Positions 1 to 983 of a stretch of DNA of 12,059 nucleotides are shown piece after piece. Position 1 is the stretch's first letter; each line of letters starts with the position of its first letter. Position numbers and translations under genes: made by a program. The stretch comes from a virus (taxonomy: Duplodnaviria > Heunggongvirae > Uroviricota > Caudoviricetes). Where the stretch lies: the IMG/VR virus record IMGVR_UViG_2541047758_000005, positions 1 through 12,059 of that record, one strand, 5' to 3'. Under the pieces are notes generated by a model. That model was not told where the DNA came from. It saw only the letters and a program-made list of their open reading frames with translations, and ran no database searches.

Positions 1-529
1 CCCTGACAGGGTTCGTAGGCCACTCAATATCAGGTGCAGTTGATGTATCAACACGGTTCAGCAACACCCGATACTTTTTCCAGGCTTCCAGCAACAAGGT
101 TTCTTCCTCCGTTGCGATCTCCAGATCCACAGCATCCTGAAGCGGCGCTATATGCTCACTGGCTACCTGCATCAGGCTGTTTTTTGTTTCTTCCGCTTCA
201 CGGATCCGGAACAGTTTTTCTGCTTCCGTATCCTTCACCCAAGCTGTGCCGTTCCACTTCTGAAACTCCCCTTCCGGGGATAACCAGGTGACATTTTCCG
301 GTAATGAGCCGAGTTCAGAAATAAATAACGCGTCGCCGGAAGCCACGTCATAAACCGTTTTACCCCGATGATCTTCAACGAGATGCCACGATGCCTCATC
401 ACTGTTGAAAACAGCCACAAAGCCAGCAGGAATATCTGGTGGTGCAATATCGGTACTGTTTGCTGGCAGACCTGTATGAGGCGGAATATATGCATCACCT
501 TCACCAATAAATTCATTAGTTCCGGCCAG
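1..529 (-). pseudogene. tfa: Tail fibre assembly protein Tfa homolog, lacking its own start codon, 3' end beyond window start
   Basis: Minus-strand frame (not the frame of the 235..516 track ORF) translates to ...[74 protein letters not shown]...[22 protein letters not shown]..., matching lambda Tfa from about residue 19 onward as recalled; no ATG/GTG/TTG in frame upstream back to the stop at 611-613; the recalled lambda N-terminus MAFRMSEQPRTIKIYNL is absent. Confidence 0.78.
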
Positions 530-676
530 GCACCAATATTTTTCGTAAAGGTGTCTTTGCCAGGGATATCCGCACCGTTCTGATCTTTCTGCAGACGTTT
601 CTCGGCATTGTCATAGGCTGTTTTTACTGCCTTTGGTGTCGCTGCAAGCGTTTCAGATGTGCTGTTGGTCGCACTT
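530..676 (-). other. Junction segment between portal fragment and tfa; translates in a third frame to a possible side-tail-fibre (Stf)-like fragment
   Basis: Minus-strand frame of the 235..516 ORF, extended upstream, reads ...[52 protein letters not shown]; resembles tail-fibre protein sequence from memory only. It is out of frame with both the B fragment and the tfa homology. Confidence 0.3.
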
Positions 677-983
677 CTTCCTCCCCGATGCCCAGATAGC
701 GCCAGCTTGGGCGATGACTGAGCCGGAAAAAAGACCCGACGATATGATCCTGATGCAGCTGGATGGCGTTGGCGGCATAGCCGTTATTGCGTACCAGATC
801 GTCTGCACGGGCATTGCCACTGGTAAAGTTGGGCAGCAGGGCTGCATCCACACTTTCACTCGGTGGGTTCCACGCCCGTAACTGCCCACCAAATCCGCTG
901 CCACCGCCGTGATAACCGGCATATTCACGCAGCGATATCATGCCGTCCGGCCCCAGAAGGGTGGGAATGGTGGGCGTTTTCAT
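677..983 (-). pseudogene. B: Portal protein gpB, N-terminal fragment of about 102 codons (track ORF 624..983 then runs into unrelated sequence and stops)
   Basis: Track ORF 624..983 begins [53 protein letters not shown]...SWRYLGIGEEE, matching the lambda portal N-terminus as recalled; lambda B is about 533 aa but this ORF stops at codon 119 after a divergent tail; start overlaps W stop (ATGA). Confidence 0.85.

Follow-up and report, generated by a model that had tools for sequence, protein, structure and literature searches.

Positions 1-983 of the stretch of viral DNA analysed here (12,059 nucleotides, hereafter the window) very probably represent a non-functional scar, left where a DLP12-family lambdoid prophage at argU lost its whole morphogenesis block, by a decay separate from that of the K-12 prophage and from a different mosaic parent. 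The scar contains two junctions, the first (J1) joining nucleotide 310 of the portal gene B to the middle of the side tail-fibre gene stf, and the second (J2) joining the resulting island of about 150 nt of stf to nucleotide 52 of tfa. The remaining gene pieces, denoted B', stf' and tfa', lie in three different minus-strand frames:

624-983, minus strand: B' open reading frame, 103 portal codons (674-983) followed by 16 out-of-frame codons; annotated by PGAP as 'phage portal protein, missing C-terminus'.
674-675, minus strand: J1, between B and stf, with a 2-nt microhomology (AG); about 18.05 kb are gone, from B codon 104 through the 5' half of stf.
530-673, minus strand: stf', read in frame 3; its roughly 50 codons, among them the conserved SSATNSTSETLAATPKAVK motif, are in frame with neither neighbour; annotated by PGAP as 'phage tail protein, missing N- and C-terminus'.
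527-529, minus strand: J2, between stf and tfa, with a 3-nt microhomology (CTG) in three-way alignments; 1,425 nt are gone, comprising the 3' part of stf and tfa codons 1-17.
1-529, minus strand: tfa', read in the frame-2 translation, with the Pfam domains Caudo_TAP_N and Caudo_TAP; runs off the window start.

Minus-strand translation showed that what B' retains of its lambda-type portal gene is the opening 310 nt, or 103 codons. The 119-residue open reading frame, in frame 1 from 983 to 624, reads MKTPT...RYLGIGEEE and then continues through 16 unrelated codons, which are stf' read out of frame, to a stop at 624-626. A blastx comparison with lambda proteins matched residues 1-105 of lambda B at 96%, blastn aligned window 674-3817 with lambda 3145-1 at 97.9%, and the reading frame was assigned to Pfam Phage_portal_2. 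These results bear out the original prediction, made from the sequence, that the frame is lambda-portal-like as far as RYLGIGEEE and unrelated from there to the stop; the cut that it placed after about 102 codons, near position 677, is real, and its exact point shifts to 103 codons plus 1 nt, with homology ending at 674. Only 103 of the 533 native codons are therefore present in B', and the open reading frame is over after 119 amino acids in place of the approximately 533 of a full-length portal. At J1, three-way alignment gave the parental reads ...CAG/TGCGACC for the stf gene of E. coli strain A16 and ...GAAGAAG/CCCG for B, with the bases AG in common; the junction string is GTTGGTCGCACTTCTTCCTCCCCGATG.

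The second piece, stf', is an internal fragment of a side tail-fibre gene, spanning 530-673 with two to three further shared bases at each end. Tail-fibre-like sequence had been predicted in a different frame over approximately 530-676; blastn, blastx and translation upheld that assignment, and only its limits required amendment. Window 527-678 matches the intact stf of strain A16 at 99.3% (blastn), and window 527-679 corresponds to PhiR26_1 41882-41730, which is nt 1551-1703 of the 3,078 nt of that stf, at 96.7%; with lambda Stf (orf-401), blastx aligned residues 368-394 at 70%, which is the conserved motif. On these alignments the A16 gene is the near-identical parent of the piece. The prophage of strain 2014C-4587 was considered as a parent and rejected, its stf having only the conserved motif in common, at 84-85%. 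What survives is about 150 nt from the middle of a gene of 2.9-3.1 kb, lacking both the N-terminal attachment domain and the C-terminal receptor-binding part.

The third piece, tfa', occupies 1-529 from codon 18 onward, and its stop codon sits 2-4 nt beyond the window. It equals nt 52-580 of the intact tfa of A16 (99.8%, blastn) and of PhiR26_1 (43836-43308), and it matches lambda Tfa at 90% (blastx, E 2e-121), as foreseen in the reading of the third frame, from about 529 to position 1, as a Tfa homologue with no start. The Caudo_TAP domain is kept, but the gene has lost its native ATG along with 17 codons, and the first in-frame ATG, GTG or TTG is a GTG at 416-418. At J2, the parental reads in A16 are ...GGTGCCTG/CCG for stf and ...CTG/GCCGGAAC for tfa, with CTG in common, and the junction string is TTAGTTCCGGCCAGGCACCAATATTTTTCG. 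Taken together, the Stf and Tfa matches contradict the case in which positions 1-676 would hold no tail-fibre or tfa homology. Gene callers differed over the start of tfa': PGAP and one other caller began it at CTG 527-529, giving a 177-residue protein labelled 'intact' (WP_044059726.1), and another began it at GTG 416-418, giving 140 residues. The 'intact' RefSeq Tfa is thus an artefact of annotation, the underlying gene being truncated at its 5' end.

The window matches, at 100% identity, one contig of scaffold KE699876.1 from the short-read, scaffolded draft GCA_000457655.1. Position 1 adjoins a gap of 4,520 N and the other end falls inside a repeat, a setting in which a complete B could have been obscured by draft-assembly errors, either at the stop (624-626) or at the junctions. 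Such an artefact is vanishingly improbable. The 201 nt that cover both junctions were found at 100% identity in 12 of 5,426 complete E. coli genomes (about 0.2%), which derive from independent projects in several countries and from sources including giant panda, pig, chicken, human and wastewater. Both junctions were likewise found in two contigs of IMG/VR and in one from a metagenome, and the overlaps at the junctions, at 2-3 nt, are far under the k-mer of any assembler. The identical region in the complete genomes answers the question, raised with the original prediction, of whether the junction reflects misassembly, and it equally contradicts a full-length portal gene interrupted by a sequencing error. 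Moreover, the exact 119-residue B' fusion protein was found in 875 blocks of an assembly collection, and the contexts among those returned no longer agreed, owing to insertions of IS21, IS3 and IS66, the loss of lysis genes and differing neighbours on the cus side. Because the carriers are many and their contexts have diverged, we infer that the scar is inherited, is older than the IS insertions and further losses, and is no artefact. The J1 string was not found in the genome_contigs collection, which holds one genome per species, and literature searches returned no description of this scar allele; RefSeq (PGAP) already annotates its pieces as partial portal and tail pseudogenes.

The chromosomal position of the remnant could be read from its carriers. 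Window 1-9712 matches the chromosome of E. coli 13TMH22 at 99.97%, and there the remnant is flanked by cusS and a T6SS vgrG island on one side and by intD-tRNA-Arg(argU)-fimZ on the other. Genomes with the identical scar read, in order, cusS, the remnant and intD-tRNA-Arg-fimZ, and the source scaffold carries cusS-VgrG-DcrB on the tfa side. The locus is thus the DLP12-type prophage site at the tRNA gene argU (tRNA-Arg(UCU)).

To define what was lost, the breakpoints were mapped against intact relatives holding both flanks, namely the phage PhiR26_1 and the prophages of strains 2014C-4587 and A16. PhiR26_1 (PV340555.1) is a plaque-forming Escherichia phage with the complete DLP12 gene order: int...Q-porin-S-R-Rz-bor-ybcV-ybcW-ylcI-Nu1-A-W-B...J-lom-stf-tfa-ybcY-tfaX-hydrolase-ompT. 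Window 674-9358 corresponds to PhiR26_1 23677-15007, with B cut after nt 310; the prophage of 2014C-4587 matches the B side at 99.4-99.5%, and for that of A16 the values are 99.3% (stf piece) and 99.8% (tfa). Across the scar, the element is short of PhiR26_1 by about 19.5 kb in total; in lambda coordinates, where the retained flanks are 1-3145 and 22024-22547, the shortfall is about 18.7 kb. Compared with the relatives, the lost genes are the rest of B, C, D, E, FI, FII, Z, U, V, G, T, H, M, L, K, I, J, lom, most of stf and the start of tfa; with none of the genes C to J of this list left between B' and tfa', the element is defective. The relatives carrying both flanks thus support the earlier reading of a large deletion scar with two frame changes, from which the whole head and tail module is gone; the loss is as large as had been supposed in kind, while the roughly 17 kb proposed as the separation of B and tfa in lambda falls short of the sizes given above. 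Overall, PhiR26_1 and the prophages of 2014C-4587, A16 and NCTC86 are collinear with the window and 96.7-99.8% identical to it on both sides of the scar; they are complete, whereas the window element is without the approximately 19.5 kb of the scar, about 6.6 kb of immunity and replication genes and its own att-int end.

No IS element, att-like site or longer homology was found at the J1 and J2 breakpoints, where only 2-3 nt are shared, and J1 and J2 would for this reason be products of illegitimate recombination, of the microhomology or end-joining type, as opposed to homologous or site-specific exchange. The microhomologies are little more than chance would provide, so that they do not identify the enzymatic pathway. 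Two successive deletions most likely produced the scar. A phage would have stayed viable after the smaller loss, between stf and tfa, given that lambda PaPa can do without side fibres; the larger one would have made the prophage irreversibly defective, and the scar would afterwards have been passed down in an E. coli lineage. We favour two steps because the stf-tfa loss fits a viable phage and because multi-island scars elsewhere resemble progressive erosion.

A one-step complex rearrangement, in which a single replication-based template switch, or a break repaired with captured filler, left the 150-nt piece of stf, is possible, if doubtful. Neither J1 alone nor J2 alone was found in the 5,426 complete E. 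coli genomes, IMG/VR or the metagenome collection, both junctions carry microhomology of 2-3 nt, and multi-fragment scars with small islands are also present in other remnants, all of which would suit a single event. However, missing intermediates are weak evidence when only 0.2% of genomes belong to the scar lineage and the intermediates may have died out; the stf island has kept its collinearity and original orientation, as successive deletions would leave it, and the stf-tfa loss is by itself compatible with a viable phage. Two kinds of lesion in lambda offer a comparison. The stf frameshift of lambda PaPa, in which side-fibre function is lost, is reportedly tolerated by a viable lambdoid phage, and deletions of the lambda b region are said to be Int-promoted and to end at the att crossover point, which may be compared with the junction at window 9712 described below. 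Those lesions belong to laboratory phages with viable genomes, whereas the scar in the window removes essential head and tail genes in a chromosomal remnant.

Eight further genomes were picked from the hit list for comparison of breakpoints, given here as gene and nucleotide in order along each remnant:

LZYWN_4, at Qin: B:432, stf:2128.
ETEC1706, at tRNA-Ser/hyaA: B:632, stf:2926.
S1, at Qin: B:633, tfa:124.
EC09, at Qin: B:634, tfa:318.
2018-10-1CC, with a tfaQ-type tfa: B:632, stf:1223.
LR-64-1, at DLP12: B:150, stf:2267-2527, stf:2899.
573, at ybhB: B:151, J:1715-2259, then stf.
MB19: W:104, then stf.

Like the window, these remnants keep the terminase and, MB19 aside, W, have B (in MB19, W) cut early, sometimes hold short islands of J or stf, and then continue into tfa; all of their breakpoints differ from those of the window, and the arrangement B:310, stf:1551-1703, tfa:52 is specific to the window's lineage. 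Lambdoid prophages decaying in E. coli thus repeatedly end up without the morphogenesis block but with the terminase kept at one end and tfa at the other. Among the compared remnants the portal gene is cut near the same nucleotide several times, at 632-634 in four (with the partners stf:2926, tfa:124, tfa:318 and stf:1223) and at 150-151 in two (with stf:2527 and J:2259). This clustering looks like either a recurrent breakpoint or successive one-sided erosion from a common first deletion.

Comparison with the DLP12 prophage of K-12 (nohD-aaaD'-tfaD-ybcY) showed the same architecture with different lesions. Both elements occupy the argU site and share the order quuD, nmpC porin, essD, rrrD, rzpD, bor, ybcV, ybcW, ylcI, nohD; in both, the head and tail module is gone, and the packaging genes abut a 5'-truncated tfa followed by ybcY. 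The late-gene set and order are held in common over window 2801-9358, at 97.8-97.9% identity. In K-12, however, nt 308 of the terminase gene A is joined to nt 147 of tfa, a junction equivalent to window 2801/434, whereas here A is full length (641 amino acids), W is also intact, and the junctions are those between B:310 and stf' and between stf' and tfa:52. The arrangement is thus unlike that of K-12, with its truncated terminase A, as had been stated in the original prediction. Furthermore, nmpC is broken by IS5 in K-12, whereas the porin gene is intact in the window, and the tfa allele is 6% divergent. The nmpC-type porin lies at window 7653-8750 on the plus strand and encodes 365 amino acids; the exact protein was found in 17,393 blocks of the assembly collection.

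Such a relationship could also be read as direct descent, the window scar being a less-decayed ancestor of K-12 DLP12, from which K-12 then lost window 435-2800 in one deletion. The chromosomal site is the same, the order from nohD to quuD is shared at 97.8% identity, and the K-12 junction encloses both J1 and J2, so that nesting is possible on geometry alone. Nevertheless, we regard this descent as highly unlikely, given that the part of tfa in common with K-12 tfaD is only 93.8% identical, against 97.8% for nohD to quuD. Homology with K-12 also ends at 9358, just upstream of quuD, and different modules follow: upstream of Q the window holds the remains of a region of the DUF968/KilA-N/RusA/Dam/PerC type, K-12 having ybcN-ninE-ybcO-rusA-ylcG. 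The early region adjoining int differs as well, with yfdP-yfdT here versus exoD, renD, emrE and ybcK in K-12. Because of the tfa divergence, the end of homology at 9358 and the differing early regions, the K-12 prophage and the window remnant are most likely different mosaic members of the DLP12 family, each decayed at argU. A less-decayed or an independently decayed relative had been envisaged; the relatedness stands, and these differences fit independent decay better and disfavour the 'less decayed' version.

In contrast to the deleted block, the packaging genes next to the scar are retained, and every gene of window 1-3628 is on the minus strand:

980-1186, minus strand: W (head-tail joining protein), intact, 68 of 69 positions identical to W of PhiR26_1.
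1183-3108, minus strand: A (terminase large subunit), intact, 641 amino acids with no internal stop, 639 of 642 positions identical to A of PhiR26_1.
3083-3628, minus strand: nohD/Nu1 (terminase small subunit), intact, 180 of 182 positions identical to PhiR26_1.
3806-3817, minus strand: cosN, the 12-nt cohesive end GGGCGGCGACCT, identical to lambda; window 3817 is lambda position 1.

Beyond Nu1 and cosN lie the lysis genes, the porin gene and Q. The scar itself would appear to encode nothing useful, since B' is without the portal body, stf' is unreadable, and tfa' has neither a start nor a fibre gene to serve; counter to such a reading, PGAP treats tfa' as an intact coding sequence from its CTG start. 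R, Rz and nu1 of K-12 DLP12 are functional once recombined into lambda, and the 3.35 kb of homology between DLP12 and lambda support high-frequency recombination that is stimulated by cos (PMC3945230). In the window, homology to lambda extends 3.1 kb further than in K-12 DLP12, to lambda 3145, taking in all of A, W and the start of B. The only realistic role for W, A, Nu1 and cosN would be as a recombination reservoir for incoming lambdoid phages, to which the additional 3.1 kb would offer a larger target.

Two more lesions lie towards the other end of the window. A third deletion scar, at 9430-9437, shares 8 nt at its junction; the prophage of 2014C-4587 carries about 6.6 kb more at this point, comprising most of DUF968, KilA-N, RusA, a LexA-like gene, Dam, PerC, the replication genes and cII/cro/cI-like genes. 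At 9710-9712, the interior of a gene for a 171-residue hypothetical protein upstream of quuD is joined to the phage-side att arm by ompT. The breakpoint is exactly the end of the 47-nt att core, whose last bases, TTAGAAG, are the argU anticodon loop in reverse complement: the window reads GGTTAAG/TTCCTAG where attR of NCTC86 reads TTAGAAG/TTCCTAG, and the arm is TTCCTAGAACG. The sequence ACTCAAGTTGGTTAAG/GATATAG may be a candidate secondary att site for the DLP12 integrase. The 9712 junction was absent from exact-string scans of genome_contigs, viral_contigs and metagenome_contigs and from complete E. coli genomes, plasmids and phages. From the join to its end (9710-12059), the window is 100% identical to the NCTC86 prophage and carries two genes:

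10135-11088, plus strand: ompT, intact, 100% identical to the NCTC86 prophage end.
11275-12059, plus strand: alpha/beta hydrolase, runs off the window, 100% identical to the NCTC86 prophage end.

The order of the truncated hypothetical gene, ompT and the hydrolase is that of a circular or tandem phage map from which the core, int and the early region have been deleted. In addition, the last 95 nt of the window (11965-12059) recur beyond the N gap. This recurrence is the signature of a two-copy repeat broken by an assembler with k=96, which ends at k-1 = 95, and it implies that the segment from the 3' part of the hydrolase through tfaX' and ybcY to the 3' end of tfa would be present twice in the source genome. 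Genomes that share the B'-stf'-tfa' scar have lost ompT and the 5' part of the hydrolase gene by a different deletion, the junction of which corresponds to window 11965.

The favoured explanation of this arrangement is that a second DLP12-family prophage, the one identical to that of NCTC86, integrated alongside the remnant, after which the int-att end of the remnant would have been removed by an Int-promoted or an illegitimate deletion. The junction could equally have come from an excised circle or from a tandem duplication of 14 kb. In a more specific and rather unlikely version of the tandem model, the remnant would be the cus-side half of a pair of DLP12-family prophages at argU, its att-int end lost to an integrase-promoted deletion ending exactly at the anticodon-loop crossover (window 9712), and a second, more complete prophage would start with ompT beside it. 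Were this pair real, cos, Nu1, A and W of the remnant would point the same way as their counterparts in a neighbour that might be active, and terminase could then cut both cos sites and package the intervening chromosomal DNA, or the two copies could swap modules.

The scar at the start of the window is an ordinary decay lesion, one more allele of the well-known erosion of lambdoid prophages by deletion. Its paired junctions, B:310 to stf' and stf' to tfa:52, provide a precisely mapped marker of a rare lineage of E. coli, seen in 12 of the 5,426 complete genomes, and its differences from K-12 DLP12 mean that, most likely, prophages from different mosaic parents have settled at the argU site, and decayed there, on more than one occasion.
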